A stretch of DNA of 61,328 nt from a virus (taxonomy: Duplodnaviria; Caudoviricetes), in IMG/VR virus record IMGVR_UViG_3300045972_000344, positions 1 to 61,328 of that record, one strand, 5' to 3'. This document shows, piece after piece, positions 6,301-26,324 of this stretch. How positions within the stretch are numbered: the stretch's first letter is position 1; the number at the start of each line of letters is the position of its first letter. A model generated the notes under the pieces. The model was not told where the DNA came from. It saw only the letters and a list, made by a program, of their open reading frames with translations, and searched no databases. A program made the translations under genes and the position numbers.

Positions 6301-6323
6301 TCCCCTTGTTCCGAAAGGACACC

Positions 6324-6641
6324 ATGCCGCAAGGAAACGCTGCCAACACTTTCGATTTTTCTATCGCTCCGGCCTACCGCGCCAAGGGTGCAATCCTGGC
6401 CGTGCTCGACCACCGGGGCCCGGGGCACACGCTCTACTGCCTATCTCGCAACGCCCGCCACTCCCCGCATCGTGGCTGCCCCTCCCAGCCCGCGCTCTGG
6501 AAGGCCCCCGCCGGGCTCCTGGAGGCCCTACGCGCCCTCCTGGCTTCCGGCTGTGTGGATCGGGTGGGCGCCTACCACTGGTTGCGCCCTGGGCGCTCTC
6601 GTGGCATCGTTGTCCCTCTACGCGGGGTAGTTCAGCGGTAG
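6324..6641 (+). CDS. hypothetical, possibly winged helix
   Basis: ATG 6324 after GAAAGGA; stop lies inside the tRNA 5' end. Confidence 0.4.
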   Translation: MPQGNAANTFDFSIAPAYRAKGAILAVLDHRGPGHTLYCLSRNARHSPHRGCPSQPALWKAPAGLLEALRALLASGCVDRVGAYHWLRPGRSRGIVVPLRGVVQR

Positions 6642-6695
6642 AACGCTTGTCTCATACGCAAGAGGTCGCGGATTCAAATTCCGCCCCCGCACCCA
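6621..6695 (+). tRNA. tRNA with CAT anticodon (fMet-like acceptor stem), encoded CCA
   Basis: Cloverleaf: CGCGGGG/CCCCGCA acceptor, GTTC/GAAC D stem, CTTGT-CTCATAC-GCAAG anticodon arm, GCGGA-TTCAAAT-TCCGC T arm, C-CCA. Confidence 0.88.
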
Positions 6696-6798
6696 AAAGC
6701 CACGGCCCCCCACGCCTCTCCCGCAAGGGACGCGCACCCAGGGGGGCCCCTTTGCGTCTGGCCCCTGATAGGATGGAGCATCCCCCTCGGAGGCTTTC

Positions 6799-10528: not shown

Positions 10529-10686
10529 TGGAGCCTCGCTTGGTCGAAGGTCATGGTGTCCACCGGGGCGAATTCATCCACGCGAGGGTGCTGGCACCCG
10601 GCCATGACGAGCCACCCGCACTCCGGGCAGGCGTAGCTGCCCCGCCTCAGATCGGTGTCTTCGGGGTGGTGCTGGCATTGGCTCAT
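10525..10686 (-). CDS. 53-aa Zn-finger microprotein (not in ORF track)
   Basis: MSQCQHH...YACPECGWLVMAGCQHP; ATGA overlaps at both ends. Confidence 0.6.
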   Translation of the reverse strand: MSQCQHHPEDTDLRRGSYACPECGWLVMAGCQHPRVDEFAPVDTMTFDQARLQ

Positions 10687-13600
10687 GCGGCATCCTCGGT
10701 CTGCTGTGCCTTCCGGGCCCGGAGCGCGCGGAGCGTCATCCCGATCCCGCTGTCGTCCAGGTATCCCTCTTTCGACTGGTAGATGCCAGCCAGAACCTGC
10801 TTTTTCTGCACCCGGGCCCGGGCGTTCCGGTCGTAGGCGTGGTCAGCCAGCAGGTTGGTCACCTCCACATCGGAGGTCTGGCCCAGGCGGTCGATGCGCG
10901 CCGTCCTCTGCTCGTGGGTCTTGTAGGTCATCGGCTGGTCGAAGTGGATTAGGTGCTTCCCGCGCTGAAGGTTGGCACCCGTGGCCGCCGCGTCCGAGGC
11001 GATCAGGATGTCCGCCGTGGGCTCCCGGCCCGGCCCGCCCTGGAAGGCTGCCAGCTTGCCCGGCTTCTCCCTGGAGGAGTCCTTGCCGCTGATGGACGCC
11101 ACCCGCAGGCCCGCGTCCTCCATGGCCTTGTGGAGCGCCTCGACCGCTTCCAGGCGGTGCGCGAAGAGGACCACGGGCTTGCCTTCGGCGATGCTCTCCC
11201 GGGCCATCTTCACGGCGGCTGCCATCTTGGCCCCGCCGATGTTGATTGCTCGGTCCATGGCCGCCTCTCGGAAGGTGCCGACCGCCTTGCGCACCCCCTC
11301 TGCGATGGCCGGGTATTCCTCCTCCGGCTTCCCGATGAAGGAGCGCGGGGCGAGTTCCTTGGCCCATTTCAGGGTGTCTTCCCCGAGGCGCAGCTTCCCG
11401 GCCGCCTTCTCGATGGTGGCGATCTGGGTCTGCTGGTCCGCGTCCAGGCCGATGGTCTCGTCATGGTGGTGGGCCACCTTCCCGCTGCCCACGCGCTCGG
11501 TGAAGAAGTAGCGCGACAGTTCGCCCTTGAGGCCCCGCCGCGAGATCGCCGAGTCGGATCCGTAGCGCCGCAGGAATTCGTCTCGCCCCTGCCTCGGGTA
11601 GCGCACGGGATCGATCTTGTGGAGCCAGTCGTATGCCTCGCTCGGGTCGTTCTTCACCGGGCTCCCGGTGGCTCCGATGTAGTGGCTGGCGTTGTGCCCG
11701 TGGGCATCGATGATCTTGGAGAGGAGGCTGTCCGGCTTCCCCTTCCGGTTCAGGGCGTCATGCCCCTCATCGATCATCAGGGCATCGAAGCTGGCCCCTT
11801 CCTTGGCGAACGCCGCCTTCAGGTTGTCCTTCAGATCCTCCGGGGTGGCGCCCATGGCCCACTTCGCGGCATCGTCCTCGCTGATCCCCCGGTGGGACGC
11901 CAGCAGCTTCACTGAATCGTCCCGGACGGCCGCGTGGGTCATCACCACGGCATGCTTCTCTGGGTCTCGGTAAGCCTGCAGGCGCTGTTCAAAGGATTCG
12001 CCCGGGACGGCATGCAGCTTGATCCCGGTGGTGGGGTCCAGGAAGTTCGCCGCCTCGGCTCCGAACTGCTCCTGAACGATGCTCGGCACGGCCATGAGGA
12101 TCTTTTTGCCCTGCCCACTGTGAACCAGCGAGGAGGCGGCGCCCATCATGATCCCCGTCTTCCCGCTCCCGGCCCCGTAGAACAGCCCCATCCGGTGCAG
12201 GCTGTTGAACGCCTTGATCCCCCGCTGCTGGGCCCGGAAGTCCCGCCCGGTCCCGGCATCGTATCCCATGTGCATGCCCTCCTGGACCTTGACGGGCTTC
12301 ATGCTCCGGCTCTGAAATGGGGCCGATGCGTTGGGCATAGCGGCCGACAGTTGGGCCTCGATCCGCGCGCCCAGGCGGTAACGCTCGCCCGGCGCCGCTT
12401 CCGGCTTCTCCCATTTCTGGGGCTCATCGCTCTCGGGAGCACCCGACAGTTCATCGGAGCCGAAGAGAGCGCCCCCCTGCCCGAAGAGCCCGGCTTCGTC
12501 CGCCTGCTCCATGCGCTCGCGGACATTGACCGACCGGAACTTCCCGGCGCCGCCGCGCTGCATCTTGGCCTGCTTCGACCGCCGCTCCGCTTCGAGTTCG
12601 GCCGCCTTCTCCGCCCCGGCAGTCGCCTTGAGGTGCGTGGAGTAGTGGGCGATGTCCCCCGTCCCCATCTGGAGCACCTTGCCCGTCAGCTTGGAATAGT
12701 GGCCGTGGAACTTCTCTGCGAGGCTGCTCTGCATCTCGCCCTGGATCGATTCGGTGGCCGCCTTGAGGCCGCCCATCTTCTCGATGTAGTCCGCCCAGGG
12801 GCTGTGGGAATCGATGGCCGCGAGGCGCCGCTCCAGCAGGGCCCGCTGCTCCCCGTGGGCCGCCGCGAAGGTGGACCCTTCCGCCGGGGCCGGGCCGAGG
12901 TCGTCAAGCTGCTGCTGCAGATCCTGGCGCTGGGCCTCCCCGGGGGAGTTCTTGCGGATGATGGCGTTCTTTTTCCGCTGGTATTCCTGATACTCCGGGC
13001 TCTCGGTGGGGCCCATGTCCTCGAAGAGGCTCATGCCCCCGGTGGTCTCATCGAACTGCTCAGGGGCCGGGCCCAGGGCCTGGAGTGCGTTCGCCAGATC
13101 CTCGCCCTTCTTCCCGTGGTGCTCCCGGTAGAACCAGTCCCGGATGGCGTGGCGCTGGATCGTGGTGAGTTCCCCGATTCCGGCATGCGCAGCCTGCAGG
13201 CGGGGGTCTTCGGCGATGGCCCGGTGCAGGGCCTCCCGGAAGTCCGGGTGATCTGGGTCCAGGGTCTGCCCTTCCAGGGTTCCGGTGTCCCCGCTGGAGT
13301 CCAGGAACTTCCGGCCGAGGGCATCGATGCTCGCCTGGATCTGCTTCGGCTCCCGCATCTTCGTCTTGTAGACCGTGTGCCCCGCGCTGTCCCGCACGAC
13401 CTGCCCGTTGTGCATCTCGGCCACGGGCTCGCCCTGCTCATCCCGGACCATCTCGTGGGTGGGGACCAGCTTGTTGATGGTCTCCTCCATCTCCCCGTGG
13501 AGGTGGGGGGGGATCATGTCCCGCAGGGTCACGCCCCGCAGGTCCGAGTTGATGTCCGTCCCACGGTGCCCGTCCGCCCACCGCTGGCCGATGTAGCGCG

Positions 13601-16013
13601 CGATGGCAGGCTCCAGGTGCTGGGAATCCGCCCCCTCTGGGAGTTCGACCTTCCGGTTGAAAACGGGCGGCTCCATGAGTTCGTTGTCGTAGCGGCTGGG
13701 CGTCCGCTTGGCGAAGCCTGGGGGGATGTATCCCTCCTCATCCATCTCGCCCCGCTTGATGCTGAGGGCCAGTTCCCGCTCCGCCACGGCCGCGTGGTCG
13801 ATGGGCTTGATCAGCTTGTCCTGCCCGGCGCCCGGAATGGTGAGGACCGCCTCGCCCCCCTCGTGGTCTAGCTGGTAATCGTTCGGCATGAGGCCCATGG
13901 CCGCCGCCGCCTGGATCGCCCGTTCCGGGGTGCTCCGGCCGAGCGGAACCTGCAGGTTCTCCGCCGGGGTGCTCTGCAGGGCCGCGATGAGGGCCGCCCG
14001 CGCCTCGAAGCGACCAAGGGCGCCGCCCAGCACCGACCGGGCCTGCTTGAGCGCCTCCACCCGCGTCTTGTGCATCTCCGCCGCCGCCGCGAAGTCCTTG
14101 GGGGTGCTGAGAAGCTGTTCCTTCATGGTCTGGGCTTCCGCCCGCAGGCCCTGGGCCTCCTGGGTCGCCTGGGGCAGATCGTTCTGCTGCTCCTGGAGGT
14201 GGTGCGTCTCCAGGGCCTCCAGGATCGTCTTCTGGTCCGCAGGCTCAAAGCGCGACCGGATGGCCCGGCTCAAGACCTGGGCCGCGCACTCGGGCCCCAG
14301 GGTCTCGACCGTGTCCCGGTCCAGGAGCCCGGCGCCGAAGACCGCCAGCCCTGCCTCGTGGAGCGCCGTCCAGGCCGCGCTGCCCCGGGAGGCCGCCATG
14401 CCCTCCTCCTCACTCCCGTCCCAGGCGCCCTGCAGGGTGCTGCTCTCCGGGTTGGCCTTCTCCACTTCGTCCAGGAACTGGCTCACATGGGAGCGAAGGA
14501 TCTGCTCGGTCAGGTCCGCGACAAGAGCCTCTTTATCCTCGGGAGAAGGCTCGGAGGCTGTCGCCAAGAACCCCGGTTGAAAAACGCGCCCGGTCTTGGC
14601 CGCGACTGCCTCCTCATACGCCTCCCGGAGCGCCGCCCGTGCCTTGAGCATGCCCCCGAGGTTCGCATTGTCTGCCAGCGCATCCTTGATGGCCGTGGCC
14701 GTGGCCTCCGCCCTGCGCTGCTGGAGTTCCTTCGTGGCGATGTGGGCCTGGACGGCTGCCTGGGTCTGCTCCTCATTCCGGGGTGCCCCGGGCTCGGCAG
14801 GGTTGACGCGCGGGGCCAGCCCCTGGGATTCCTTCCATGCGGCCGTGGCGCCGACCAGCTTCTCCGCCGTCAGGCCGTTGGCTTCGGCGCGCTCTCGGAT
14901 CGCCCGGTCGTATCCGGGGCCCTTGTCCTGCTGGGTAGAGAGGATCGTGTCGATGGCGAGGCCGGGGGTGAGGTCGCCCCCCACTTCGGCGAGCCCGGCC
15001 GCGACCCGCGTCTCGGCATCGAGGGTGATCTTCCGCTGGGCTTCCTTGCAGGCCGCGAACGCCTGCTTCAACCGCTCCCGGTGGTAGGCACGGGCGACCT
15101 TGGGGTCTGCATCGGGGGTGTTGCTGAAGAGGTCCGGGGCCTCGGCTGCCTGGGAATCGTCCCCCAGAACCTGCTTGATGAAGGCGTCCTCCGCCTTCTT
15201 CCGGTGTTCCTTGGCTTGGACCGACTGCTGCACATGGGCCTCGCGCTGCTCGGGGGTCATGGCCTTGAGGGCTTCCTTCTCCGCCTGCTGCTTGGCCGTC
15301 CGGCGCTCGGTCGACTCCTGCTTGTATTGCTCGGGGCTCTTGGTCAGGTTGATGCGGAGGAAGTTCAGCTTTCCCCCGGCTCCTCCCACCACCCGGTGAA
15401 GACCAGGATGGCCTTCCACGGGGCGAAGAAGAACCGCATTGCCCTTCGTCCCCGGCCCATTAGGATGCACGGTGATCCAGCGGTCCCCGCTCTGGGGCGG
15501 GGTGTCTGCCTTGGCGACTTCGAGAGGTTCCTTTTCAGGATCCACCGCTTCAGCTTTGATCCGTTTCCCCTCAAAGAACGCCTCCAGTCCCCCGTGCTCA
15601 TGGGGCTTGCCGTGGTGGTCATGGGCCGTCTCCGCCCAGGATTCGCCCTCGCTGATCCAGTCCTCCAGGCTCCCGTTCGGGATCTGGCGGATGCTGCTGA
15701 TCGGGTGCTGCCCGGCGGGGTAGTGCTTCATCAGGACTTCGGCCGCGTGAACCGGGCTGTCGAACCCGAGGAGCACCTTCTCCTCATCGTGCTCGCCGTC
15801 CGGGTGGGTTTGCCCGACCACGAAGACGCTGGGGCTGTCCTTGTGCGGGCCCACCCACGCCTTGACCTCCCGGCGCCCCTCGCCATCGAGCCCCTTGATG
15901 ATCCCCCGTCCGGCCTTCATGCGCGTCATCCAGCCGATGCCGTCCGGGCCCTTCCCCAGCTTGAAACCGCCGGGCTCGTGGGTCATCTGGATCGGGATTC
16001 CTGCGATGTCCAT
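10683..16013 (-). CDS. large polyvalent protein: degenerate InPase-like N-terminus plus C-terminal SWI2/SNF2 helicase
   Basis: GAGSGKT, IDEGH, ATGSP, ATGANLQ, QRTARIDRLGQ; RWITVHPNG segment; ATG 16013 has GGAGG (track start 16034). Confidence 0.85.
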   Translation of the reverse strand: MDIAGIPIQMTHEPGGFKLGKGPDGIGWMTRMKAGRGIIKGLDGEGRREVKAWVGPHKDSPSVFVVGQTHPDGEHDEEKVLLGFDSPVHAAEVLMKHYPAGQHPISSIRQIPNGSLEDWISEGESWAETAHDHHGKPHEHGGLEAFFEGKRIKAEAVDPEKEPLEVAKADTPPQSGDRWITVHPNGPGTKGNAVLLRPVEGHPGLHRVVGGAGGKLNFLRINLTKSPEQYKQESTERRTAKQQAEKEALKAMTPEQREAHVQQSVQAKEHRKKAEDAFIKQVLGDDSQAAEAPDLFSNTPDADPKVARAYHRERLKQAFAACKEAQRKITLDAETRVAAGLAEVGGDLTPGLAIDTILSTQQDKGPGYDRAIRERAEANGLTAEKLVGATAAWKESQGLAPRVNPAEPGAPRNEEQTQAAVQAHIATKELQQRRAEATATAIKDALADNANLGGMLKARAALREAYEEAVAAKTGRVFQPGFLATASEPSPEDKEALVADLTEQILRSHVSQFLDEVEKANPESSTLQGAWDGSEEEGMAASRGSAAWTALHEAGLAVFGAGLLDRDTVETLGPECAAQVLSRAIRSRFEPADQKTILEALETHHLQEQQNDLPQATQEAQGLRAEAQTMKEQLLSTPKDFAAAAEMHKTRVEALKQARSVLGGALGRFEARAALIAALQSTPAENLQVPLGRSTPERAIQAAAAMGLMPNDYQLDHEGGEAVLTIPGAGQDKLIKPIDHAAVAERELALSIKRGEMDEEGYIPPGFAKRTPSRYDNELMEPPVFNRKVELPEGADSQHLEPAIARYIGQRWADGHRGTDINSDLRGVTLRDMIPPHLHGEMEETINKLVPTHEMVRDEQGEPVAEMHNGQVVRDSAGHTVYKTKMREPKQIQASIDALGRKFLDSSGDTGTLEGQTLDPDHPDFREALHRAIAEDPRLQAAHAGIGELTTIQRHAIRDWFYREHHGKKGEDLANALQALGPAPEQFDETTGGMSLFEDMGPTESPEYQEYQRKKNAIIRKNSPGEAQRQDLQQQLDDLGPAPAEGSTFAAAHGEQRALLERRLAAIDSHSPWADYIEKMGGLKAATESIQGEMQSSLAEKFHGHYSKLTGKVLQMGTGDIAHYSTHLKATAGAEKAAELEAERRSKQAKMQRGGAGKFRSVNVRERMEQADEAGLFGQGGALFGSDELSGAPESDEPQKWEKPEAAPGERYRLGARIEAQLSAAMPNASAPFQSRSMKPVKVQEGMHMGYDAGTGRDFRAQQRGIKAFNSLHRMGLFYGAGSGKTGIMMGAASSLVHSGQGKKILMAVPSIVQEQFGAEAANFLDPTTGIKLHAVPGESFEQRLQAYRDPEKHAVVMTHAAVRDDSVKLLASHRGISEDDAAKWAMGATPEDLKDNLKAAFAKEGASFDALMIDEGHDALNRKGKPDSLLSKIIDAHGHNASHYIGATGSPVKNDPSEAYDWLHKIDPVRYPRQGRDEFLRRYGSDSAISRRGLKGELSRYFFTERVGSGKVAHHHDETIGLDADQQTQIATIEKAAGKLRLGEDTLKWAKELAPRSFIGKPEEEYPAIAEGVRKAVGTFREAAMDRAINIGGAKMAAAVKMARESIAEGKPVVLFAHRLEAVEALHKAMEDAGLRVASISGKDSSREKPGKLAAFQGGPGREPTADILIASDAAATGANLQRGKHLIHFDQPMTYKTHEQRTARIDRLGQTSDVEVTNLLADHAYDRNARARVQKKQVLAGIYQSKEGYLDDSGIGMTLRALRARKAQQTEDAA

Positions 16014-16089
16014 GCCGTCCTCCGTGCTCGACATTCTCCCATGACAAAGGCCCGGTTGCCCGGGCCTCGTGTCACTTCCGTGCGGGGGT

Positions 16090-16596
16090 CTACGCCTTGG
16101 GGACGGGGGTGCCCACGGTGAAGACCACCTGAGTCGCGGGCAGGGGCGCGGGCGCCACGGCGGACACCGCGAAGTCCTGGCTTCCGCTCACGACCGATCC
16201 GTCCGGGTTGGTCCCGTGGACGGTGAGGGCCGAGTTCCCGGCCGCCAGACCCTGGACCGTGATCTCCGCCGTTTCGGCAGGGACCGAGGAGTCGTAGGGG
16301 GCGGTGAAGGCCGCGCCGATGACGCTGGGGTCACCGGGGACGAGGGTGATGTTGGTCACCTTGGCCGGGGCGCCGTTGGCGTCCAGGAAGGCGATGGAGA
16401 CAGGCACCTGCTGGGTGCTGTCGAGGAGGGCGGGGCTGCTCATGGGGATGCTCCAAAAAAGGAAGGGGTGGCGGAAAGCTATTGTGACAGCGTTCCGGTG
16501 GTGGTGGTGACGGTGTAGAAGGTGCCAGATAATCTGGCGGAGCCTCCCGAGGATGATGTTCAGGACCGTGGCGAAGATGCGGAGGTGGCGCCTCAT
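16090..16596 (-). CDS. Ig-like beta-sandwich protein (start may be 16443)
   Basis: beta-rich C-terminal ~117 aa; ATG 16596 overlaps upstream stop; alternative ATG 16443 after GGAG. Confidence 0.55.
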   Translation of the reverse strand: MRRHLRIFATVLNIILGRLRQIIWHLLHRHHHHRNAVTIAFRHPFLFWSIPMSSPALLDSTQQVPVSIAFLDANGAPAKVTNITLVPGDPSVIGAAFTAPYDSSVPAETAEITVQGLAAGNSALTVHGTNPDGSVVSGSQDFAVSAVAPAPLPATQVVFTVGTPVPKA

Positions 16597-19500
16597 CCTT
16601 GAGCCTTGGCCCGGTGGTAGCTGGCTGCGGCGTGGTGGGCTTCCCAGGCTTTCTGGTGGCCCTCGTGCTTGTAGTCGGTGTCTTCGTTGGCCTGCTCGTG
16701 ACTCATCTCAGCGGCCATGTGGCTCATCTCGGCAGCGTGGTGGTCTTCCTTCGTCCCGGTCTGCTCTGCCTTGACGGACGCGGCGTGGGCGGTCTGGGAG
16801 TAGGGGAGCATCTGCTTCCCCGTCCTGCCCTTGGTGCCCTTGGCAGCGGCGAGCGCCCTGTCGTGGTGGGTCTCAGGCGGGGTGCGCGCCTGCATCGCGG
16901 CGACCTGCCCATCGTGGTAGGCGGCCTTCGTTTCGTGCTGCCCCCGGACCTCGCTGTCGTATTGGATCGCGGCGGCGTGGCGGTGAGCGGCTGCAGCCTC
17001 CTCGTGGACCTTGGCGCCTCCGGCCGGGGCGAGGGTGGTCCGGCTGGCCGACTCCGCCCGCTTGGCTCGGAGGTTGATTTCATCGTGCCCCTTCGCCATC
17101 TCGGCTCGGTGGTGCTCGATCTTGGTCCGGTGTGCATCGGCCTTCAGGAAGTGGTGGTCGGCAGGGTATTGGTTGGCATGCGCCGTGGTGCCCATCTTGG
17201 TCGCAGCCTCCCGCGCCTTCCCGTGGGCCTCGATGGCGAGGAGGTGCTTGGCGGCATGCTGATCGTGGGACTGGTAGTTGTCCTCCAGCTTGTGGGCATC
17301 GGCATGCTCGCTCAGGTGCCCGGCGATCTTGGTGGCGTGTTCATAGGTTCCCTGGTTCCCCGTGTTCTCTTTCGCGTGGTCGACCGACATTCCGAAGTGG
17401 CGGCTGGCCGCGTGGTAGTGCTCGCTGCCATTGCCCTCGGCATGCGCCTGGAGGTGAGCCTCCCCGGCCTTCTCGTGGAGCAGGGCGGCCTTGCCGTGGG
17501 CATCCTCGTATCCCGCCTCCCCGCGCGCATGGGCAGAAGTCTCGCGGCTGGCCTTGTCTGCAGCCCGGGTGTGGTCATCCGGGGTGGCGGCCGAAGCCTT
17601 CCCCTCCTGGTGGGCCTTGGTCTCGCGGTCTGCCATCTCCATGGCCTCCTCTCGGGTCTTCCCGTGGCCCAGGATGGCGCCGCCGGAGGAGACCGAGTGG
17701 ATGGGCTGGCCCGTGGAGTCCTCCCCCTCGGTGTGCCGCATCCCGTTCGGGAGTTCGGTCACGATGGGGGTCTTCTTCGCCCGGGCCGCCGGGGCGAGTT
17801 CGGCCGCCTTCTTCGCGTGGCTGGAGGCGTAGTGGCCGTGCAGGTTGGCTTGGTCCTCATGGCCCCGCTGCTGCCACGCCTCGGGGGCATGCTGGGCGGC
17901 GGTGCGGTGGGCCTCGGCTGCCTGCTTGTGCAGGTCAGCAGCAGCGGCATGCTCCTCGTGGCCCTTGCTGATCGAGTGGGATGTCGCCATGGTGGCGTTC
18001 TTGCTGATCGCGTTGGCCGCGTTCATGTGGGTGTCGTATCCCGAGACCTGGACCGTCTTCCCGCCCACCACCCGGGTGTGCTGCTCCACATGGGCCTTGG
18101 CGACCGTCTGCCCCTTGGGCCTGAATCGTTCGGCCACCTGGAAGTGCAGGTTCCTGGTTTCGGCGTGGCCCCGGGAGAATTCGACCGGGCCATTGTTGGC
18201 GAGGGTGTTGTGCATGTCTGAGGCTTTCCGGTGCGCCTCGTAGGCTGCCTGGATGTCCTCCTGCTTCCCCCCCCCGGATCGGACCTTCCCCGTCAGGACA
18301 TGGGCCGCGCTCGACTGGGCCTCGGCCGCCGCCTTCTGGGCCGGGTAGCTGGTAGCGCGCGCATTCCGCTCCGGCGCTGGGATCCGCAGGCGCCTGGACT
18401 CCGTGGCGTTCCCCTCGTGCGCGTCCGCGCGGCCGTCATGCTGAATGTGGGCCGCCGTGTGGTCGGTGTTCCGGTTGGCGGTCATGTCGTCAACCTGGGC
18501 CCTGGCGGCGGCCTTGTGCATCAGCGCGGCGTGTCGGTGGAGCCGGGCGGATTCGAGGTATTTCTTCTCGCTCCCGGGCCCGTATCCGACCTTGTCGTGA
18601 TCCACATCCCCGGCCCTGGCAGCCTCGCTGGCCCTGGTTGCGGAGGCGCGCTTGCTCTCGTAGGCGCTGACCTGGACGACCCGTCCGCCCTGGGTTCGGG
18701 TGTGAGCCGCGACCTCGGACTTCCCGAAATCCTGGCCCTCGACCCCGGGGGTGGCCGCATCCTTCAGGGCGCGAACCTCCTCCAGATGGGCAGTGGCCGC
18801 GTCCTCGTGGTGGCGGGCGATGGCGTGGTGGGCCTCGATGACCTCCGGCATGATGTCCATCCGGTTCGTGTGGTCCTTGGCCCGGTCCCGATGGGCGTTG
18901 GCTGCGGCGCGGTGGGCATTGAAGGCGCGGGCGTGGGAGAGGGGGGTGTTCTTTTCCCCTGCTCGGATCGTCTGGCTGTGGGCATGCTCGCTCGCCTGCC
19001 GGGCGGTTCCGTTCCCGTGCAGGTTCAGGCCGACCACCTTCTCCATCGCCATCGTGGCGTGGTCCCCGGCGTCCGGCTTCTCCATGCTCCGCTGGATCCG
19101 GGTGTGCTCATCGGCGAAGGAGTGATGACCCATGGCGGCCGTGGCGTGGTGCAGCCGGAGGGCATCGTCCGTGGATGCGGCGGCGGCGTGGTCGTGTTCC
19201 TGGGCAGCCTCCAGATGCATATGCGCGGCGTATGCATGCTGGTCGTTCTTTTCGACCCCCAGTTCCTCGTTCCCGTGGGCCTCCTCGGACGCAGCCAAGG
19301 CGTTGTCCGTGGCGGTGGCGGCCCGGGGATGGCTGCTCTGGTGGTTCATGACCTCGCCGTGATGGGTCCACATGCGGTTGAAATCGTAAGCCGCGACCTG
19401 GACGACCTTGCCGTTAACCGTTCGGGTGTGGCCCTCCACATGGGATTTCCCGATCTCCTCCTCATCGTCCTCATCCTTCTTCCGGTCCTTCTCATCCGGG

Positions 19501-20645
19501 TGCCCTTCGACCGCCAGAGCGGCGCCGCCCGTCTTCGTGGCGATGTCCGTGCCCCCGCCGAGGGAGGTCATGCAGCCCTCGCCCTTGGCGACAGTCTGGG
19601 TCTCGACCTTGGCCCCCTCGGCTTCCTGGGCCTTCTTCGCGTGGAAGGCGTGGAGTTCCATGTGGCGCATCGCCATCTGGCCGTGGTGCCCGTCTTCGGA
19701 GTCCTCGTGGGCCCCGTGCAGGGACATGTGGTGGTCGATGGCGTGGGCATGCAGCGCGGCGGCCTTTCCGTGGTCGCCCTTGGTCCCGGTCTTCACGGCC
19801 TGGGTGGTGGCCTTCTCTGCCTCCCCGCTCGCCATGGCCGCCCGCTTGACGGTCGGGTAGGGGAGAGGGCCCATGCCTGCCTTAAAGCTGGCTTCGTGAG
19901 CCTGGGCCTGGATCTCGTGGCCTTCGGCCTGCTCCTCGTGTCCGGCGCCCGGCTTGGCCTCAGCCGCCTTCGCATGAGCGGTGGCGGCCGCTTGGTGGGC
20001 CGCGACCTTGCTGTGGGAATCGTAGGCTTCCCCGGCCGTCCGCGTGGAGGTCTCAGCCTTCGTCTTCGCCCGGTTGTATTTCTCCTCCCCTCGGAGGCTG
20101 TTGGCCTCGCTCCGGTGGTAGGCGACCGCGTTCAGGTGGGACGCCTTCAGCTTGGCATGCTCCTCCCCGACCTCCGGCACATCCATGGGGTGCACCGCGT
20201 GAGCCTCCCCGTGCTGCTTGGCCGCCTCCTCGTGGGACGCGGCGGCGTTCTCGTGGCCCTCGGCCGTCTTCGTCCGCATCGCGTGGAAGGTGGCCCCGTG
20301 CGCCAGGGTGGTCTGCTTCATGGCCGCCGTTCGGGCGTTCTCGTATGCCTTCACATTGACCGTCTTCCCGTTGGCGAGGGTCCGGGTGTGCTGCCCGACC
20401 ATCCCCTTGGCGATCTCCTCCACGGCGCCCAGGATCTCCAGGGCCTTGCCCTCGTCCCCGCCCATGGCCTTGACCACCTCCTCGACCACTTCCATGGGGG
20501 TGACCCCCTCGGCCGCGCCATCGGTCAGGGCCTTGGCGAAGGCGATCCCTTCCGGCGTCTTGTCGAGGCCCCGCAGGTCTCGGAGGAAGGAGCGGGAAGC
20601 CTGAAGCTGCCCCGCCATGGTGAAGATCCGGGTTAGGTGGTTCAT
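16593..20645 (-). CDS. 1350-aa His/Ala-rich repeat protein, probable internal head protein
   Basis: many HxxAAxxHxxA helices; four K[GSA]xVxxHTRxxxG[KR]xVxVxxY motifs; GGAGG RBS. Confidence 0.75.
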   Translation of the reverse strand: MNHLTRIFTMAGQLQASRSFLRDLRGLDKTPEGIAFAKALTDGAAEGVTPMEVVEEVVKAMGGDEGKALEILGAVEEIAKGMVGQHTRTLANGKTVNVKAYENARTAAMKQTTLAHGATFHAMRTKTAEGHENAAASHEEAAKQHGEAHAVHPMDVPEVGEEHAKLKASHLNAVAYHRSEANSLRGEEKYNRAKTKAETSTRTAGEAYDSHSKVAAHQAAATAHAKAAEAKPGAGHEEQAEGHEIQAQAHEASFKAGMGPLPYPTVKRAAMASGEAEKATTQAVKTGTKGDHGKAAALHAHAIDHHMSLHGAHEDSEDGHHGQMAMRHMELHAFHAKKAQEAEGAKVETQTVAKGEGCMTSLGGGTDIATKTGGAALAVEGHPDEKDRKKDEDDEEEIGKSHVEGHTRTVNGKVVQVAAYDFNRMWTHHGEVMNHQSSHPRAATATDNALAASEEAHGNEELGVEKNDQHAYAAHMHLEAAQEHDHAAAASTDDALRLHHATAAMGHHSFADEHTRIQRSMEKPDAGDHATMAMEKVVGLNLHGNGTARQASEHAHSQTIRAGEKNTPLSHARAFNAHRAAANAHRDRAKDHTNRMDIMPEVIEAHHAIARHHEDAATAHLEEVRALKDAATPGVEGQDFGKSEVAAHTRTQGGRVVQVSAYESKRASATRASEAARAGDVDHDKVGYGPGSEKKYLESARLHRHAALMHKAAARAQVDDMTANRNTDHTAAHIQHDGRADAHEGNATESRRLRIPAPERNARATSYPAQKAAAEAQSSAAHVLTGKVRSGGGKQEDIQAAYEAHRKASDMHNTLANNGPVEFSRGHAETRNLHFQVAERFRPKGQTVAKAHVEQHTRVVGGKTVQVSGYDTHMNAANAISKNATMATSHSISKGHEEHAAAADLHKQAAEAHRTAAQHAPEAWQQRGHEDQANLHGHYASSHAKKAAELAPAARAKKTPIVTELPNGMRHTEGEDSTGQPIHSVSSGGAILGHGKTREEAMEMADRETKAHQEGKASAATPDDHTRAADKASRETSAHARGEAGYEDAHGKAALLHEKAGEAHLQAHAEGNGSEHYHAASRHFGMSVDHAKENTGNQGTYEHATKIAGHLSEHADAHKLEDNYQSHDQHAAKHLLAIEAHGKAREAATKMGTTAHANQYPADHHFLKADAHRTKIEHHRAEMAKGHDEINLRAKRAESASRTTLAPAGGAKVHEEAAAAHRHAAAIQYDSEVRGQHETKAAYHDGQVAAMQARTPPETHHDRALAAAKGTKGRTGKQMLPYSQTAHAASVKAEQTGTKEDHHAAEMSHMAAEMSHEQANEDTDYKHEGHQKAWEAHHAAASYHRAKAQG

Positions 20646-20727: not shown

Positions 20728-20759
20728 TGACTTGCGAAAAGTCAAGCGGGGGCTATACT
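20728..20759 (+). promoter_or_regulatory. sigma70-like promoter with overlapping palindrome
   Basis: TTGCGA(20732)-16 bp-TATACT(20754); TGACTT-N5-AAGTCA over the -35. Confidence 0.65.
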
Positions 20760-20784
20760 TCTAAGTGCAAAGGAGCCCCACCCC

Positions 20785-21897
20785 ATGAAAAACGCCGCCC
20801 TCTCCATCCCCGTCTTCTACTCCCCGAAGCAGGCTGCCAAGAACGCCACCGCCTTCTCCCCGTCCGCCGGGAAGCCCGCCATCGTGGCCCAGGCCCTGCT
20901 CGACCGTGGGTTCGCCGTCACCATCAAGGCGCCCCGCCCCCTGCTGTTCTCCGAAATGGAGCGCGTCCACGGCACCCGCCATCTCATGGGGATCCTGGAC
21001 GGGACCATCTCCAACGGCTTCGGGAACAAGGATCTGGAAGTCGCCCGGACCCTCCCCTACACCACGGGCTCGATGCTCTCGGCTGCCCTGGCTGCCACCC
21101 CGGAAATGCCCGCCGTGTCGCTGTCGTCCGGGTTCCACCACGCTGGCTACACCAGCCCCTCCGGCTTCTGCACCTTGAATGGCCTCATGATCACCGCCGC
21201 CGCCCTGCTGTCCCAGAAGAAGGCCCGCCGGGTCGCCATCCTGGACTGCGATGCTCACTACGGGAATGGCACCGATGAAATCCTCCGCATGTTCCCCGCC
21301 CTGGCGAAGCACATCATCCACCGCACGGTCGGCCAGGGCTCGGTCCACCACTCCGCCTACCTCCAGAAGGTCGAGCGGTTCCTGTCCGAGATCCGGGACT
21401 TCGGCCCCGATGTGGTTCTCTACCAAGCGGGCGCCGATCCCCACGAGTGCGACCCCTTGGGCGGCTACATCAGCACCGATGAAATGCGCCAGCGGGACCG
21501 GATGGTCTTCGAGTGGGCCAAGAAGAACAAGGTCGCGCTCTGCTGGAACCTCGCGGGCGGCTACAACAAGGGTGGCGTCACCGGGATCGATCCGGTGCTG
21601 GCCCTCCACCTGAACACCTTCCGGGAAGCCTGCGCGGTCTACGGGCTCCCCGTCCCGGCCGAGATGGTGGTGGCTGCCCTCAGCCCGAGCGCCAAGGCTT
21701 CACGCAGCGCCTACTGGGACCAGGACTGGGACAACCAGGATCGCTCCTACGGCGGCCGCTACTCCCGGCGCGAATCCTCCCGGCGGGCCCAGCGGGTCTC
21801 CTCCCACGAGAATTGGAGCGGTGGCAAGGGCGCGAAGGAACTGGAGCAGCCCCGGCGCCTCAGTGAACGCTCGATGTTCGACCTGGACCGCTTCTAA
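20785..21897 (+). CDS. Zn-dependent histone deacetylase (HDAC/AcuC) family protein
   Basis: GFHHA, GFC, LDCDAHYGNGT, YQAGAD...DPLG, AGGY all intact. Confidence 0.93.
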   Translation: MKNAALSIPVFYSPKQAAKNATAFSPSAGKPAIVAQALLDRGFAVTIKAPRPLLFSEMERVHGTRHLMGILDGTISNGFGNKDLEVARTLPYTTGSMLSAALAATPEMPAVSLSSGFHHAGYTSPSGFCTLNGLMITAAALLSQKKARRVAILDCDAHYGNGTDEILRMFPALAKHIIHRTVGQGSVHHSAYLQKVERFLSEIRDFGPDVVLYQAGADPHECDPLGGYISTDEMRQRDRMVFEWAKKNKVALCWNLAGGYNKGGVTGIDPVLALHLNTFREACAVYGLPVPAEMVVAALSPSAKASRSAYWDQDWDNQDRSYGGRYSRRESSRRAQRVSSHENWSGGKGAKELEQPRRLSERSMFDLDRF

Positions 21898-22085
21898 TCC
21901 TCGGCCTGCAGTTCTTCGGCGTGGAGGCATGTGGCCTTCGCCACCGCGAGCACCAGACAGTTGATCGCCTGCTCGGGCGTCCAAATTCCCACAGGGGGGT
22001 CAGCGATGGCCCCCTTGAGGTCGTTAACCGCGAGGACCACGCCCTGCTCTGCTTTGATCTTTTCGATGGCGGCTTGGGCGCTCAT
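21894..22085 (-). CDS. small hypothetical protein
   Basis: ATGA-coupled to the GNAT gene; 3' end overlaps the HDAC stop. Confidence 0.55.
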   Translation of the reverse strand: MSAQAAIEKIKAEQGVVLAVNDLKGAIADPPVGIWTPEQAINCLVLAVAKATCLHAEELQAED

Positions 22086-23617
22086 GCTGATCTCCGGGCT
22101 GCTTTGGCCTTCGTGTATTTAAGCATGCGTTGTAGGTGGCGGTCATCCCCCACCAGGAACCGACCACCGAAGTTCGTTCCAGGCATGAAGAACTGGCCGA
22201 GGGGATGGTCCGCGACCTCCCACTGGGCGTAGTTGTTCGTCTTCGCCACGAGGGCCTCGAATTCCCGGCGCTTGGTGGGGTTCGCCCAGATCGCCTTGGC
22301 CTCCTGCGCCTGCTGCAGCTTGTGGGCACTCGACCGCATCTTGGCTTGGTTCCCGGCGCTCGTGGCGGCCTGCAGTTCCCGCTGCCGCTTGACGATGTGC
22401 TGGTCGAAGTCGATCTGGGAATAGCGGGCCTGGATCTGGCTCTGCTGCGACCGCCAGCAGGAATTGTCCCTCGGCACGAACCCGTATCGGCTCCAGGCGA
22501 ACCCGCCCCCGCCGCAGGCCGCCGTCACATCGGCGTGGTGAAGGCCCCATGCCCGGTAGTAGTCCATCGAGTGGGCCAGGAACGCCTCGCTGTAACCCGA
22601 CCCCTGGACCGAATCGTCCGTGATCAGGTAGGCGTGGTAAACCGATTTTTCGGCCGGGTTGCTGAAATTGAAATTGCGCTGAAAGGTTCCGATCTTGCCG
22701 GGAAGGGCCGGGTCTCCGCCGAAGCTCAGGCTTGACGAACTCCCGTCAAATGCCAGCTTCAGCCCTGGCCCCCAAGGCACAAAGCAATCCTCGATCCACT
22801 GCCGAATGTCGCTCTTGCAGTGCAGATTCCAGCCGTTGATGAAGCCGTCCGTGAACCTGAAGGTCATCCCCCTGGCTGCGCACTCCCGGGTCACTGCATC
22901 GCAGATTGCCCTGCTGAGGGGTTCGGTCTGGGGGATCGGGTTCCCACCGAACATGCCGCCCGCGACTCGGACGGCGCCGAACAGCTTGGCGAATTCATCG
23001 TCAATGTCGGATTCAGAGGCTCCCGGGGTCTCCAGGCGCTGCCCGAAGATGCTGGCGAACTGGTCATCCGTCTCGGTCTCCGTGGGCCCGGTCGCAACCG
23101 GGGCACTTTGGGCCACGGCGGGGGCCACGGCGGGCGCGGGGGTGGCGAGTGGGACCACGGGCCGGGCAGGGGCCGTGCGCGCCCTGGTGGGCCTCACGGG
23201 CGCCGCTGCCATCGGGACGGTGTTCACGGTGGGAGGGGGTGCCTCCTGGCTGAACCCGCCATGGAAGGCCACGGCGTTCAGGAGGGCCCGGGCGTCCTGC
23301 GCGGTCTCGAAGTCCAGCACATCGTAGGCGCCTTGGCGGCCGTGGTGGTTCCCGCCTGCCCGGGTCCGGGTGTAGCGGATGCCGTGCCTGTCGGCGAGCC
23401 TCATCAGTTCTCGGGTGTCCGCCCCGTTGGTGGACCGGATCCGGGTGGGCCTCCCGTCCACGATGGTCGACCGCTCGTGAAGGTGGGCCTCCCGGCTGGT
23501 GGCCGCGATGGCGTGGTTCGCGTGGTAGTCGTGGACGAAGATCACCTTGCCGTTGACCACCCGGTAGTGGGCGTTCGTGTGGCGGTTCTCCTGGTGGGTG
23601 GCGGCGACAGCGGGCAT
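22082..23617 (-). CDS. multi-domain protein with C-terminal GNAT acetyltransferase
   Basis: VYHAYL...VQGSGYS (acetyl-CoA motif A)...GGFAWSRYGF; Pro/Ala linker; N-terminal domain shared with upstream gene. Confidence 0.72.
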   Translation of the reverse strand: MPAVAATHQENRHTNAHYRVVNGKVIFVHDYHANHAIAATSREAHLHERSTIVDGRPTRIRSTNGADTRELMRLADRHGIRYTRTRAGGNHHGRQGAYDVLDFETAQDARALLNAVAFHGGFSQEAPPPTVNTVPMAAAPVRPTRARTAPARPVVPLATPAPAVAPAVAQSAPVATGPTETETDDQFASIFGQRLETPGASESDIDDEFAKLFGAVRVAGGMFGGNPIPQTEPLSRAICDAVTRECAARGMTFRFTDGFINGWNLHCKSDIRQWIEDCFVPWGPGLKLAFDGSSSSLSFGGDPALPGKIGTFQRNFNFSNPAEKSVYHAYLITDDSVQGSGYSEAFLAHSMDYYRAWGLHHADVTAACGGGGFAWSRYGFVPRDNSCWRSQQSQIQARYSQIDFDQHIVKRQRELQAATSAGNQAKMRSSAHKLQQAQEAKAIWANPTKRREFEALVAKTNNYAQWEVADHPLGQFFMPGTNFGGRFLVGDDRHLQRMLKYTKAKAARRSA

Positions 23618-23620
23618 GGT

Positions 23621-26206
23621 CTACCTCCCCTGCAGCTTCGCGGCGAAGTCCCGGGCATGCTGGGCATGCTCCTCTGCCTTGCGGATCGCGGCCTTCCGCT
23701 CCTCACCCTTGGGCAGCGTCATGGCGTGGTGGTAGGTCGCCACCGCCGACTTCTTGTAGGCATCGAGTGCGGCCGTGATCTTGCCTCGGTCGGTGGTGCC
23801 CGTGGCGATGGCATGGGCCGTGGCCGCCGCCTGCTGGTGGGTCTCATGGGCCCGGGCAAAGCGGGGATCAGAGGTCTTCGGCCGGGATTCCAGGCGGGTG
23901 GCCTCCTTCGCGGCCTTGTCCGCAAGCTGGGCCAGCTTGTCCACCACGGGCTTCGTGGCCGATGCCCAGATCCCAGTGGGGTGCGCCATCACGGGGAGGG
24001 CTGCGTCCCGGGCCTGCCGGACGGCTTGGGCCATGGTGGTGGCGGCTGCCCGGGCGTCATCGGCCTCGGGGTGCTGCGCCAGCACTTCCGTGGTGGCTGT
24101 GTGGATCGTGTTCAGGTGCGCGAGGGCCCCCGCGAAGCGGATGGCGGCGGTCTTCTGCTCCCCGGTCATCCCGCCGTTGAGGGTCTCGCTGTTGATCGCC
24201 TGGATCTGGGTGGATACGGCCGTCTGGGGATTCTGTTCGGTGGTGGCGAACCGCTCCAGCTTGGCTCCGAAATCCAGGGCCGCGATCTGGCTGTCGATCC
24301 CGGTCTTGGCCTCGGTCAGCTTGGCCTCGGTCATCCCGGCGGGAAGCGCGGCGCCCGTGGGGCGCATGTCGATCATGTCCTTGGCATCGTTGGCCGCCTT
24401 CTTGGCCGCCTCGAATCCGCGACCGCTGCTGAGGGTGCTGGTGATCGCGGCCGGGTTCAGGCTGGTCATCGCGTTCCGCCACTGGTTCGCGGCGGTGGTC
24501 TTCCAGGCGGTCAGGCGCTCCTGGTGCCACCGAGGGCCCTTGCCCTGCTGGTCTGGGATGGCTCCACGGGTCGCCAGATCCAGGCCGATGGCATGGGTTC
24601 GGATGGCCTCCATGGAGTTCTGCAGGGCCTGCTTCGTGTGCTGGCTATCGGTGCCCCGGGCCCGGTCGCCAGCCGCGAAGGCAGCGTCCCGAGCGGTCTG
24701 GTATTGCGAGGCCGTGACGCCGGATCCGGCCGGTGGCCCGGTGACGGGCGCAGGACGGGGGGCCCCGGAAGGGCCAGCACCCGCGCCAGGGGCTGCCGGG
24801 CGGACGGGGATGGGGACGGAGGTTCCCTGGGGCGGAACAATCGCAGCGGCGGCAGCCTGGGCAGGCTGGTTCAGGCTCGGGTGCAGGTAATTGTCCATGG
24901 CCGTGTAGCGCAGGCGTGGCGAGGCGCTGTCCTCCCGGCCGACATACCCGCCCCGGACCTTCTCCGCCTTGATCTGGGTCACCAGGGCGTTCGCGGCGGC
25001 CTGGGACATGGGGGTGACCGTCTTGGTTCGGACGACCAGCGAGCGGCTGTCGATGCTCCCGTTCCCGGCGTTGACGACCCACTTCCCCTCCCCCACTTGG
25101 CGGAGGTCGATGATGTAGTGCTTGTTGTGCGTCCCGCTCGTGTTCTCCAGGACCACCCGGCGGTCAAGCTGCCCCGCGATGTGGTTGGTGAAGAAGCGGC
25201 GATCCTGGCTGAAACTCTGGGCGGCAGCGGCCAGGGCGGCGGAAGGAGACGGGGCCTGGGCGGCGGCGGCATTCGCCACGGCGGCATTGTTCGTCCGGGT
25301 GGCGGTCGCCATCCTCTGCAGCGCAGCCTGGACGGCTCCGGCGCCCCGGGTGGCGGTGTGGACGGTGTGCTCGTGGGCTCGGTCGCCGTGGCGGAGCCGC
25401 ACCGCGTCCATGACGGCGTGGGCCTCGGCAGTGCTGGCGAAGATCATGGTCGGGTATGCGCTTTGACGCCCGTGGTGGTTCGCCCCACTGGGCCGGGTCG
25501 CCACCGGGTTGACCCCCAGGCTGTGCGCGGCCGAGAGGACGAGGTCGCGGTCGTCCGAGTCGGTGGCCCGGATGAATGCCTGCCCGGACTGGTTCACTCC
25601 CACCACTGTCCGCTGGTGCATGGTGGCGCTCGGGTGCTCCCCGTTCACCGTCCGGTCGTAGTTCGGGATGTAGACGATTTTGCCGTTCACGATCCGGTAA
25701 TGCGCCTTCACATGCGCCGTCTCGGACTTCAGAACCGCCTCGTCCTGCAGATTCCCTTCCTCGATCCAGCGGCCGAGTTCGTCAATCGGGACGGTGATGA
25801 CCGAGCCCATCACATCGTCCGGGTTGTCGCTTCTCCCCGCCCTGAACGCGTGGATGGCCGCCTCCCGGCTGGGGTAACCGATGAAGACCTTGTGCTCATC
25901 GAATTCGCCCGTGGGCCCCTTCTGGTTGATGATGTGGGCCTCGGTGCCGCTGCCCATGAGGGGCCCGACCGCGCAGTCCAGGTGATCCCCGTCCGCGCCC
26001 TCGGTGCCCTTGATGTATCCGTAGTGGTAGGGCATCGTCACTTCCCACGGATCGCCCTTGTGGTTCACGCCGCTCCGCTTCGTGCCCGCCAGATTCTCGA
26101 TGGCGATGTCCATGCCGTGCAGGCGCCAGTGGGTCTTCGCGTAGTTCCCGGCTCGCTTCTGCGCCTCGGTCGGCGCATCGGGTGCGATGGGCGTGGCGGT
26201 CGTCAT
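23621..26206 (-). CDS. polyvalent protein: InPase + shared domain + WGR-like domain + helical tail
   Basis: AGNYAK...YGYIKGTEGADGDHLD...FDEHK; NKHYII...KAEKVRGGY; ATG 26206 after GGAGG. Confidence 0.8.
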   Translation of the reverse strand: MTTATPIAPDAPTEAQKRAGNYAKTHWRLHGMDIAIENLAGTKRSGVNHKGDPWEVTMPYHYGYIKGTEGADGDHLDCAVGPLMGSGTEAHIINQKGPTGEFDEHKVFIGYPSREAAIHAFRAGRSDNPDDVMGSVITVPIDELGRWIEEGNLQDEAVLKSETAHVKAHYRIVNGKIVYIPNYDRTVNGEHPSATMHQRTVVGVNQSGQAFIRATDSDDRDLVLSAAHSLGVNPVATRPSGANHHGRQSAYPTMIFASTAEAHAVMDAVRLRHGDRAHEHTVHTATRGAGAVQAALQRMATATRTNNAAVANAAAAQAPSPSAALAAAAQSFSQDRRFFTNHIAGQLDRRVVLENTSGTHNKHYIIDLRQVGEGKWVVNAGNGSIDSRSLVVRTKTVTPMSQAAANALVTQIKAEKVRGGYVGREDSASPRLRYTAMDNYLHPSLNQPAQAAAAAIVPPQGTSVPIPVRPAAPGAGAGPSGAPRPAPVTGPPAGSGVTASQYQTARDAAFAAGDRARGTDSQHTKQALQNSMEAIRTHAIGLDLATRGAIPDQQGKGPRWHQERLTAWKTTAANQWRNAMTSLNPAAITSTLSSGRGFEAAKKAANDAKDMIDMRPTGAALPAGMTEAKLTEAKTGIDSQIAALDFGAKLERFATTEQNPQTAVSTQIQAINSETLNGGMTGEQKTAAIRFAGALAHLNTIHTATTEVLAQHPEADDARAAATTMAQAVRQARDAALPVMAHPTGIWASATKPVVDKLAQLADKAAKEATRLESRPKTSDPRFARAHETHQQAAATAHAIATGTTDRGKITAALDAYKKSAVATYHHAMTLPKGEERKAAIRKAEEHAQHARDFAAKLQGR

Positions 26207-26324
26207 GGTGCCTCCGGGTTGGAGAATTTTCGCATATCCCGACAGCGCGCGGGTGAATCTGGAGTGAGGCACGGTCCCGCAACTGTTGGTTTTTCCTCAG
26301 AGTGCGGGTGGCATACTTCCCCCC

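Follow-up and report, generated by a model that had tools for sequence, protein, structure and literature searches.

Polyvalent proteins of phages, among them proteins with an InPase domain and two families of GNAT acyltransferases, have been predicted to be packaged in the virion and injected into the host (Iyer et al. 2017, PMC5512222). GNATs in phage cargo proteins are in other words already in print, having been predicted in 2017. That paper makes no mention of a deacetylase. The locus described here has both, side by side. It lies at positions 20728-23617 of the linear IMG/VR virus record IMGVR_UViG_3300045972_000344, which at its full 61,328 bases is called the window below. The locus consists of a gene for a protein of 511 amino acids (aa) that ends in a GNAT domain, a 63-aa open reading frame (ORF), and, on the opposite strand, a gene of the histone deacetylase (HDAC) family.

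Another described pattern is that of the MuF polymorphic toxins. A small downstream ORF accompanies 89.4% of 191 MuF toxin genes, and such ORFs are taken to be immunity genes (Jamet et al. 2017, PMC5576092). The toxin domains that this paper names do not include GNAT. As to the deacylases, two recent surveys of bacterial and class IV enzymes leave phages unmentioned in their main texts (PMC11532494, PMC13325672). Phage HDAC genes have already been annotated, for example gp202 of Rhodococcus phage E3. A literature search, with supplementary lists outside its reach, found no study of a phage-encoded HDAC-type enzyme.

The reading favoured here is that the phage keeps two separate weapons in one accessory slot: an acyltransferase that would be ejected with the DNA, and a deacylase that would be made early. 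Confidence in this falls just short of even. The initial annotation, made from the window alone, had joined the two enzymes as a writer/eraser pair, and had also stated that they are not known as regular phage genes. The latter needs to be corrected. Profile scans of IMG/VR find HDAC relatives on at least 119 contigs, and the GNAT family on at least 235. Single-sequence scans of the same collection, run with the GNAT domain and with the HDAC to find close relatives, returned nothing beyond the window itself.

The case for two independent enzymes starts with how seldom they meet. Linkage was counted in phage samples of 80 GNAT loci, 80 viral HDAC loci, 80 whole GNAT records and 79 whole HDAC records, with a neighbour radius of 10 kb. 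None of the GNAT loci has an HDAC within that radius. Over whole records, 79 of 80 with the GNAT family are without an HDAC. The remaining one has it 30 kb away, and of the 12 GNAT records with a completeness of at least 90%, not one has an HDAC. Counted from the other side, the GNAT family is absent from the surroundings of 77 of the 80 viral HDACs, and from 73 of the 79 HDAC phage records.

Most phage HDACs live in nucleotide-metabolism neighbourhoods. The 146 immediate neighbours of the 80 viral HDACs are most commonly HNH (11), YfbR/HD nucleotidase (6), Thy1/ThyX (4) and NrdR-like (4) genes, with dCTP deaminase also prominent, and the top 25 neighbour families include no GNAT family of any kind. 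Almost everywhere the GNAT family does without an HDAC, and most phage HDACs are located elsewhere. There are also 80 metagenome HDAC loci, none with the GNAT family and only one (the short contig L005) syntenic with the window. Since these loci mostly look bacterial or island-borne, they have little bearing on linkage in phages.

Syntenic relatives of the window come both with and without the HDAC. The relative L165, also called G001, is a complete genome of 87,976 bases with direct terminal repeats, and its major head protein is 82% identical to that of the window. It keeps order and orientation: helicase, His/Ala-rich protein, HDAC (plus strand, 69% identical), GNAT protein, InPase protein. 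In L005 both the His/Ala-rich gene and the HDAC are kept, together with the end of the 63-aa ORF. The more distant L085, with a capsid protein that is 41% identical, is syntenic as well; it has the orthologous GNAT protein and no HDAC. The order there, all on one strand, is InPase protein, GNAT protein, small ORF, DUF2793 gene, His/Ala-rich protein and helicase. The DUF2793 protein (E 8.2e-15; 11166-11690, plus strand) occupies the place of the HDAC, and this position in the operon is therefore a variable slot. The linkage of HDAC and GNAT is real but facultative.

In the window, genes on the minus strand flank the HDAC gene on both sides, at 10683-20645 and 21894-26272, and their GC content at third codon positions (GC3) is 0.78-0.89. 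In minus-strand order these are the genes for the 883-aa protein, the 511-aa protein and the 63-aa ORF, then the antisense HDAC gene, and then those for the 1350-aa, 168-aa and 1783-aa proteins. Given that every gene flanking it between 10683 and 26272 is on the minus strand, the HDAC gene is reversed within the operon, which it cuts in two. The earlier description of an HDAC lying antisense within a cargo-type operon is thereby confirmed, and the absence of the HDAC from the syntenic L085 likewise marks it as a separate unit.

The HDAC gene itself (20785-21897, plus strand) is intact, as had been claimed. It matches PF00850 (Hist_deacetyl) with an E value of 9.2e-32 and 111 bits, where the gathering cut-off is 27.9, and the match is borne out on the genome. 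Its 370 aa comprise a catalytic core, from aa 1 to ~295, and a basic and aromatic C-terminal tail of ~70 aa. Catalysis by HDACs relies on a His-His dyad, on Asp, His and Asp as ligands of the metal, and on the Tyr of a GGY motif. All of these catalytic residues are present: in an alignment with 22 relatives H118, H119, D154, D156, H158 and GGY260 are the same throughout, and D218 is conserved in at least 90% of the sequences. The motifs also align with those of the solved structure 9RJE.

The best solved structures for this enzyme are all class IV (HDAC11-type): 9RJE at 4.8e-24, 9GKV/9GKY at 6.6e-18 and 9GZ5/9RJD at 3.1e-15. Other classes score as follows: HDAC8 reaches ~1e-9, and HDAC6 reaches 4e-18 with two domains summed. 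The polyamine deacetylases 3MEN (3.8e-10) and 3Q9B (3.2e-9) come out 14 orders of magnitude worse than class IV, and an assignment by similarity as acetylpolyamine amidohydrolase (APAH, 'cluster 4') was rejected on that account. PADLOC and NCBIfam yield no match for the HDAC, nor for the 511-aa GNAT protein or the 63-aa ORF.

9RJE is a clade A HDAC11 homolog known as chrHDAC11-1/A (PMC13325672), 9GKV/9GKY is HdaH of V. cholerae, which is described as a de-decanoylase (PMC11532494), and 9GZ5/9RJD is the HDAC11 of Leptospira (PMC11532494, PMC13325672). According to a 2026 survey, clade B removes medium-to-long fatty acyl chains, and clade A showed no activity on peptides (PMC13325672). The window HDAC has mixed clade signatures. 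Its top score is against the clade A structure, yet the residue before the His-His dyad is Phe, which is the clade B residue. Class IV is known for long-chain deacylation or for unknown non-peptide substrates, and not for plain deacetylation. Compared with the original term deacetylase, deacylase is the safer label for what is a predicted activity.

The tail of the HDAC, which ends in Trp/Phe, is common to its closest relatives, and more distant relatives are without it. At aa ~296-370 (21670-21897, plus strand) it contains acidic-aromatic patches (WDQDWD ... RRESSRR ... DLDRF), and the relatives that have it include an island-borne one. The sister group of the window HDAC is found in bacterial or island contexts. 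One such island (L006, 126-14002) carries an integrase, a primase-polymerase, an HDAC that is 62% identical and the closest outside phages, a type I restriction-modification system and a DUF4268 protein. This setting fits a role in conflict, and proves nothing.

The HDAC gene has a promoter of its own, as initially annotated. The sigma70-like site TTGCGA-16-TATACT is at 20732-20759 (plus strand), in an intergenic gap of 139 bp, and a Shine-Dalgarno sequence (AAGGAG) lies 9 nucleotides (nt) 5' of the ATG. A consensus scan of 12 kb found two sites of this kind, of which this is one, where shuffles lead one to expect 0.8. The hexamers and their spacing are conserved throughout the alignment (3 of 3), as TTGCTA/TACACT in L005 and as TTGACA/CATAAT in L165, the latter being nearer to consensus. 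In both relatives the promoter is the best-conserved part of the spacer, and the rest of the L165 spacer has diverged.

The palindrome reported together with this promoter, TGACTT/AAGTCA (6+6), does exist at 20728-20744, where it overlaps the -35 hexamer. It is conserved in neither L005 nor L165. It was therefore rejected as an operator, and is probably there by chance. As to a terminator for the HDAC gene, the sole candidate, at 22096-22110, is weak, and terminator-like sites number 6 against 7.1 in shuffled sequence.

A search for tyrosine integrases (PF00589), which did not extend to serine recombinases, found none in the window or in G001, the complete relative. This suggests a lytic phage. 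A lytic style together with a host-type promoter suggests in turn that the HDAC is expressed early. For the same lack of a tyrosine integrase in G001, with the same proviso on serine recombinases, a role for the HDAC as a prophage 'moron' expressed in lysogens is disfavoured.

The 511-aa protein, on the minus strand, has three parts. It starts with a domain that is shared with other proteins and is called the tag here (aa 1-125, 23243-23617), made of a HYRxxNGKxVxVxxY hairpin and a small alpha/beta domain. A Pro/Ala-rich linker follows (aa 126-214, 22976-23242), with a GC content of 72.7%. The remainder (aa 215-511, 22085-22975) is the GNAT-fold acyltransferase domain, which has a helical insert at about aa 385-478. 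The GenBank phage collection has no match for this protein.

That the C-terminal domain belongs to the GNAT superfamily can be accepted, on the strength of a predicted fold, a family profile and matches in relatives. The model of aa 215-511 has a pLDDT of 94.1. Searched with Foldseek against the PDB, nearly every row listed is a GNAT (AtaT, KacT, SpeG, NatD, RimJ and others), at probabilities of 0.72-1.0. The E values are modest, from 2e-3 to 2e-2, over some 95-175 aligned columns. The independent aligner VIA also has GNATs in its top rows, with Z scores of 5.5-6.7 over 102-139 residues, which is below the safe level of Z 8. A profile of 50 family members against the PDB gives 18 matches, 12 of them GNAT chains, the best at E 0.0029 and aligned on the CoA-binding motif. 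In Pfam the 511-aa protein itself has no direct GNAT match at E values up to 0.1. Two relatives do match over the homologous region, P0130 to Acetyltransf_1 (38.7 bits) and P0128 to Acetyltransf_10 (32.6 bits). The other seven relatives scanned with Pfam yield no GNAT family, and among these P0126 matched only Phage_Mu_F. The initial annotation had placed a GNAT at 22473-22646, and this turns out to be the motif A/B core of the domain.

Motif A of GNATs, Q/R-x-x-G-x-G/A, serves the CoA pyrophosphate. In the window it reads Q-G-S-G-Y-S. Both glycines (G125 and G127) are kept in 45 of 50 relatives, and the final residue is mostly A (27 of the 50) or G (15), with S in 5. The helical insert, of ~90 residues, sits between the fifth strand with its helix and the last strand. 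At position 373, the Tyr of GG[Y]AW where the helix after strand 5 starts, 46 of the 50 members have Tyr, which we take to be the likely general acid, as such a Tyr is in several GNATs. The window has Phe here, otherwise seen only in its closest relatives, P0003 (in the alignment) and P0002 (in a motif scan). The family as a whole counts 654 representative clusters at E values up to 0.001. Many of its members sit within proteins of 1,500-7,600 residues with MuF and ADP-ribosyltransferase (ART) domains.

The tag recurs at aa ~183-300 of the neighbouring 883-aa protein (E 3.3e-17) and again in L085 and L165, where three proteins each have it. Nine proteins carry it, and seven copies from three phages were aligned. 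Of its motif, H-Y/T-R-x-x-(N)-G-K-x-V-x-V-x-x-Y, the operon has six copies; four belong to the 1350-aa protein, and the 883-aa and 511-aa proteins have one apiece. Over all frames of the window, a loose form of the pattern gives one further match, a poor one within the primase gene. The tag has no Pfam match and no usable protein atlas match, and the viral fold library gave nothing below E 0.03. Its model is of moderate quality (pLDDT 71). The alpha/beta part (aa 56-122) resembles the ring-building motif of type III secretion systems (PrgK, 4W4M: Z 6.9, rmsd 2.3, 58 residues) and ACT-like domains. This likeness is too weak for naming the fold, but it is suggestive, as the domain may have a part in docking cargo inside the head.

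Behind the tag, the GNAT domain behaves as an exchangeable module. Its GC content is 63.2% (GC3 0.82), that of the tag is 69.6% (GC3 0.94), and that of the 63-aa ORF is 62.5% (GC3 0.78); the GC3 of neighbouring genes is 0.87-0.90. The protein P0273 is 83% identical in the tag and has another GNAT allele, of the L165 type (GSYAWAR, without the long insert). Between L165 and the window, flanking proteins are 51-82% identical, and the tag-GNAT protein only 35%. The earlier observation that the GNAT part is richer in AT, as if swapped in, is well founded. From these comparisons the 511-aa protein follows the pattern of polymorphic effectors, with what would be an unchanging part for delivery and, at the C-terminus, a GNAT domain open to exchange. 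The HDAC stays put while the GNAT allele is swapped, and its composition is unlike that of the cassette of GNAT and 63-aa ORF.

The 63-aa ORF (21894-22085, minus strand) overlaps both its neighbours by 4 nt: it is coupled in translation to the GNAT gene, and it runs convergently to the HDAC gene. Its start codon and the stop codon of the GNAT gene overlap in the sequence ATGA, with GGAGA 7 nt upstream. Its last 25 aa are 96% identical in L005. There is no match for it in Pfam or PHROGs. A small ORF 3' of the GNAT gene is also found in L085 and in two further loci discussed below, L224 and L227. BLASTP gives no alignment between the 63-aa ORF and the ORF at the same position in L085, so that position alone is common. 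The ORFs of L224 and L227 (72-73 aa) are alike by eye and do not resemble it. By analogy with the MuF toxins an immunity factor is the best guess, a possibility also raised in the initial annotation.

Put together, the favoured reading of two separate weapons would run as follows. The 511-aa protein would be made late, be packed in the head alongside its neighbours, and be ejected when the DNA is. The GNAT would then acylate a host amine at time zero, most likely on a protein that serves transcription, translation or defence. The 63-aa ORF, coupled to the GNAT gene, would move along with this cassette, and its product may act on the GNAT as a restraint or as a chaperone. The HDAC gene would have been acquired independently and be expressed early, with the host RNA polymerase reading its conserved promoter. 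Its product would strip acyl groups, acetyl or longer, from lysines or from another amine in the infected cell, and would not need the GNAT to be useful. Packaging, timing, substrates and the independence of the two enzymes are all predictions from sequence.

Several findings weigh against such independence. The adjacency of HDAC and GNAT recurs in the unrelated lineage L224/L227 (GC ~50%, HDAC ~35% identical), where the two are within ~2 kb of each other. The order there, on one strand, is a protein with Acb1 and ART domains, a protein with ART and GNAT domains, the 72-73-aa ORF, a RelA/SpoT-like gene in L224 only, and the HDAC. The HDAC groups of the window and of L224/L227 are far apart on the HDAC tree, and the neighbourhood therefore arose at least twice. 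Furthermore, three of the eight GNAT domains in HDAC-bearing records are within ~2 kb of the HDAC, the other five being 30-74 kb off, which exceeds random placement in genomes of 50-115 kb. The six HDAC records out of 79 that have the GNAT family are likely above background. Finally, the pair seems to have been kept through the window clade, over HDAC identities of 57-100% and the swap of the GNAT allele. This is confirmed for L165, and is inferred for three contigs. The longest source contigs of HDAC relatives and of tag-GNAT proteins are of equal size in three cases (18,071, 5,427 and 75,336 bases). Overall, HDAC and GNAT are neighbours more often than chance would have it. Of the co-occurrence that the initial annotation put forward as a check, adjacency in L165 and L224/L227 is what stands; as a general rule over GNAT and HDAC records, it does not.

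With these findings, the two genes could form a write-erase module, where the ejected GNAT acylates a host target and the early HDAC removes the mark, either as a timer or to protect the phage's own late production, or an infected cell, against GNATs of the same kind. This is plausible, though less likely than the favoured reading. In both lineages the HDAC comes just downstream of the unit of GNAT and small ORF, and the two HDAC clades separate on the tree. The opposite strands and different promoter types of the two genes would fit different timing. A precedent also exists, in that the deacetylase CobB reverses the acetylation of Cas12a by the phage GNAT AcrVA5 (PMC9114340). What argues against a module is the large majority of GNAT records that do without an HDAC, the L085 locus included, and the nucleotide-metabolism surroundings of most phage HDACs. 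A fixed HDAC beside a changing GNAT, of different composition, is also hard to square with it. So is the chemistry: characterised class IV enzymes favour long acyl chains or lack peptide activity (PMC11532494, PMC13325672). The Phe of the window GNAT is one more point against such a module. The broader idea of a phage-run reversible acylation switch, similar to an effector with its metaeffector and assembled independently in at least two phage lineages, is a shade less likely still.

That Phe also gives rise to the thought that the window GNAT is weakened or catalytically dead, serving to bind or as a decoy, in which case the window phage has no 'writer' at all. Among the Foldseek matches there is an entry for the Y144F mutant of AtaT. 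The rest of the CoA-binding motif is kept, however, glycines included, a second Tyr (RYGF) is present, and the Tyr is dispensable in many GNATs. The Phe is moreover fixed in three diverged sequences (76-81% identical), suggesting continued selection. A dead GNAT is for these reasons very improbable. Somewhat less so, though still improbable, is that the HDAC acts on a small molecule, such as acetylpolyamines or some other acylated amine, and so tunes the metabolism of the infected cell. The HDAC superfamily takes in polyamine deacetylases, and phage HDACs adjoin genes of nucleotide metabolism. Giant viruses encode active acetylpolyamine amidohydrolases (PMC9992855), and for clade A, which showed no activity on peptides and to which the best match 9RJE belongs, non-peptide substrates have been proposed (PMC13325672). 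On the other hand, the similarity to polyamine deacetylases is far below that to class IV, and the Phe before the His-His dyad is the residue of the peptide-active clade B enzymes. The virus survey, as far as available, also reports such homologs for giant viruses only, and not for phages (PMC9992855).

The favoured reading, of an ejected acyltransferase and a separate early deacylase, also draws on the rest of the phage. The window has an estimated completeness of 70% and a G+C content of ~67%. With genes for a tail sheath and baseplate proteins, besides those for a major head protein (phrog_752, 8.7e-52) and a primase, it comes from a contractile-tailed phage. The operon adjoins the genes for the head protease/scaffold and the major head (capsid) protein, and its InPase regions match PHROG families for a minor head protein, a virion structural protein and DarB-like antirestriction. 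From this gene position, the PHROG names and the published context of polyvalent proteins, the operon proteins are probably packaged in the virion.

Two multi-domain neighbours fit the polyvalent type, where the 511-aa protein has one catalytic domain and the tag. The 883-aa protein (23621-26272, minus strand) is a cargo-type protein with InPase (PF18823, E 4e-40), tag, WGR and a helical tail. Its WGR domain, at aa 372-457, was found by PADLOC (WGR_XIII, E 4.2e-11). WGR is a module associated with nucleic acid or poly-ADP-ribose. The annotated start of this gene (26272, minus) is 13 bases away from that of a head protease/scaffold-like gene (26286, plus). As two promoters would not fit in between, the 883-aa protein may really begin at an internal Met ~22 codons in. 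The 1783-aa polyvalent protein (10683-16034, minus strand) combines InPase (PF18823, 2.8e-22) with a DarB-like SNF2/DEAD helicase (Helicase_C, 2.3e-10; phrog_62, 1.2e-71).

Between these lies the 1350-aa protein (16593-20645, minus strand), which has four copies of HTRxxxGKxVxVxxY and starts divergently from the HDAC gene. Its composition is strongly biased towards His, Ala, Glu and Lys. L005 and L165 have a conserved counterpart of its N-terminus upstream of their HDAC genes, and except for a weak phrog_27368 (E 0.001) the protein has no family match. It may be a scaffold or carrier for cargo proteins. Elsewhere in the window, the G+C content of 40001-42000 is 55-57% against 67% contig-wide, and no long ORF of high GC3 is among those listed for it; this stretch may be non-coding or a recent acquisition. 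At 6621-6695 (plus strand) there is a single gene for tRNA-Met (CAT). In L224 and L227, the protein upstream of the GNAT is a fusion of an Acb1 anti-CBASS phosphodiesterase with an ADP-ribosyltransferase (4241-5935 and 5331-6797, both plus; Acb1 E 1e-35 and 1.3e-37). As these fusions are directly upstream of the ART-GNAT protein and the HDAC, this is a dense counter-defence island.

Three genes, one for a tagged acyltransferase, the small ORF coupled to it and one for a deacylase with its own promoter, make the locus and its relatives a compact system for tests. It comes with natural controls, in the form of L085 without the HDAC, L165 with another GNAT allele, and the window phage with its Tyr-to-Phe variant. 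If the enzymes are partners, then phages time the modification of their host with an eraser of their own. If they are not, the HDAC is still a recurrent early phage enzyme in want of an explanation. Its substrate could reveal a host acylation that is relevant during infection.

How the locus relates to known systems can now be made more precise. A GNAT toxin-antitoxin pair of the AtaT/TacT/KacT type was considered and rejected. Such pairs have a small solo GNAT, and the antitoxin gene is upstream. Here the GNAT ends a 511-aa protein and the small ORF, which has no family match, is downstream; the likeness is one of fold only, with 21-24% identity over ~95 columns.

With the polyvalent GNATs of Iyer et al. 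the window shares a GNAT module that ends a phage protein beside structural genes, and neighbours with InPase and helicase domains (PMC5512222). The relatives of the window GNAT within giant MuF/ART proteins, and the ART partner in L227, belong to the same picture. The window protein differs in being short, with one catalytic domain behind a tag that Pfam does not recognise. The layout is also that of the MuF polymorphic toxins, with a conserved N-terminal delivery part, a variable C-terminal effector and a small ORF downstream (PMC5576092). In contrast to these toxins of temperate phages, no MuF domain (PF04233) was found in the 511-aa protein, and no tyrosine integrase in the complete relative G001.

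The class IV deacylases HdaH, chrHDAC11-1/A, Leptospira HDAC11 and human HDAC11 have the same catalytic motifs and the same short core of ~300 aa (PMC11532494, PMC13325672). The window enzyme differs from these in being phage-encoded, in its extra basic tail of ~70 aa and in its mix of clade A and B signatures.

Rac of the phiKMV-like phages is likewise a phage GNAT for host takeover, aimed at the alpha subunit of RNA polymerase (PMC7552054; cited in PMC7824862). It is an expressed early protein, outside any tag or head operon, and the available description gives it no deacylase partner. AcrVA5, which is also among the weak fold matches of the window GNAT (6IUF, Z 4.8), is a small solo protein without a tag, and its eraser CobB is a host sirtuin where the window has a phage zinc enzyme. 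What the two cases would have in common is the principle that the acetyl mark of a phage GNAT can be reversed by a deacetylase (PMC9114340).

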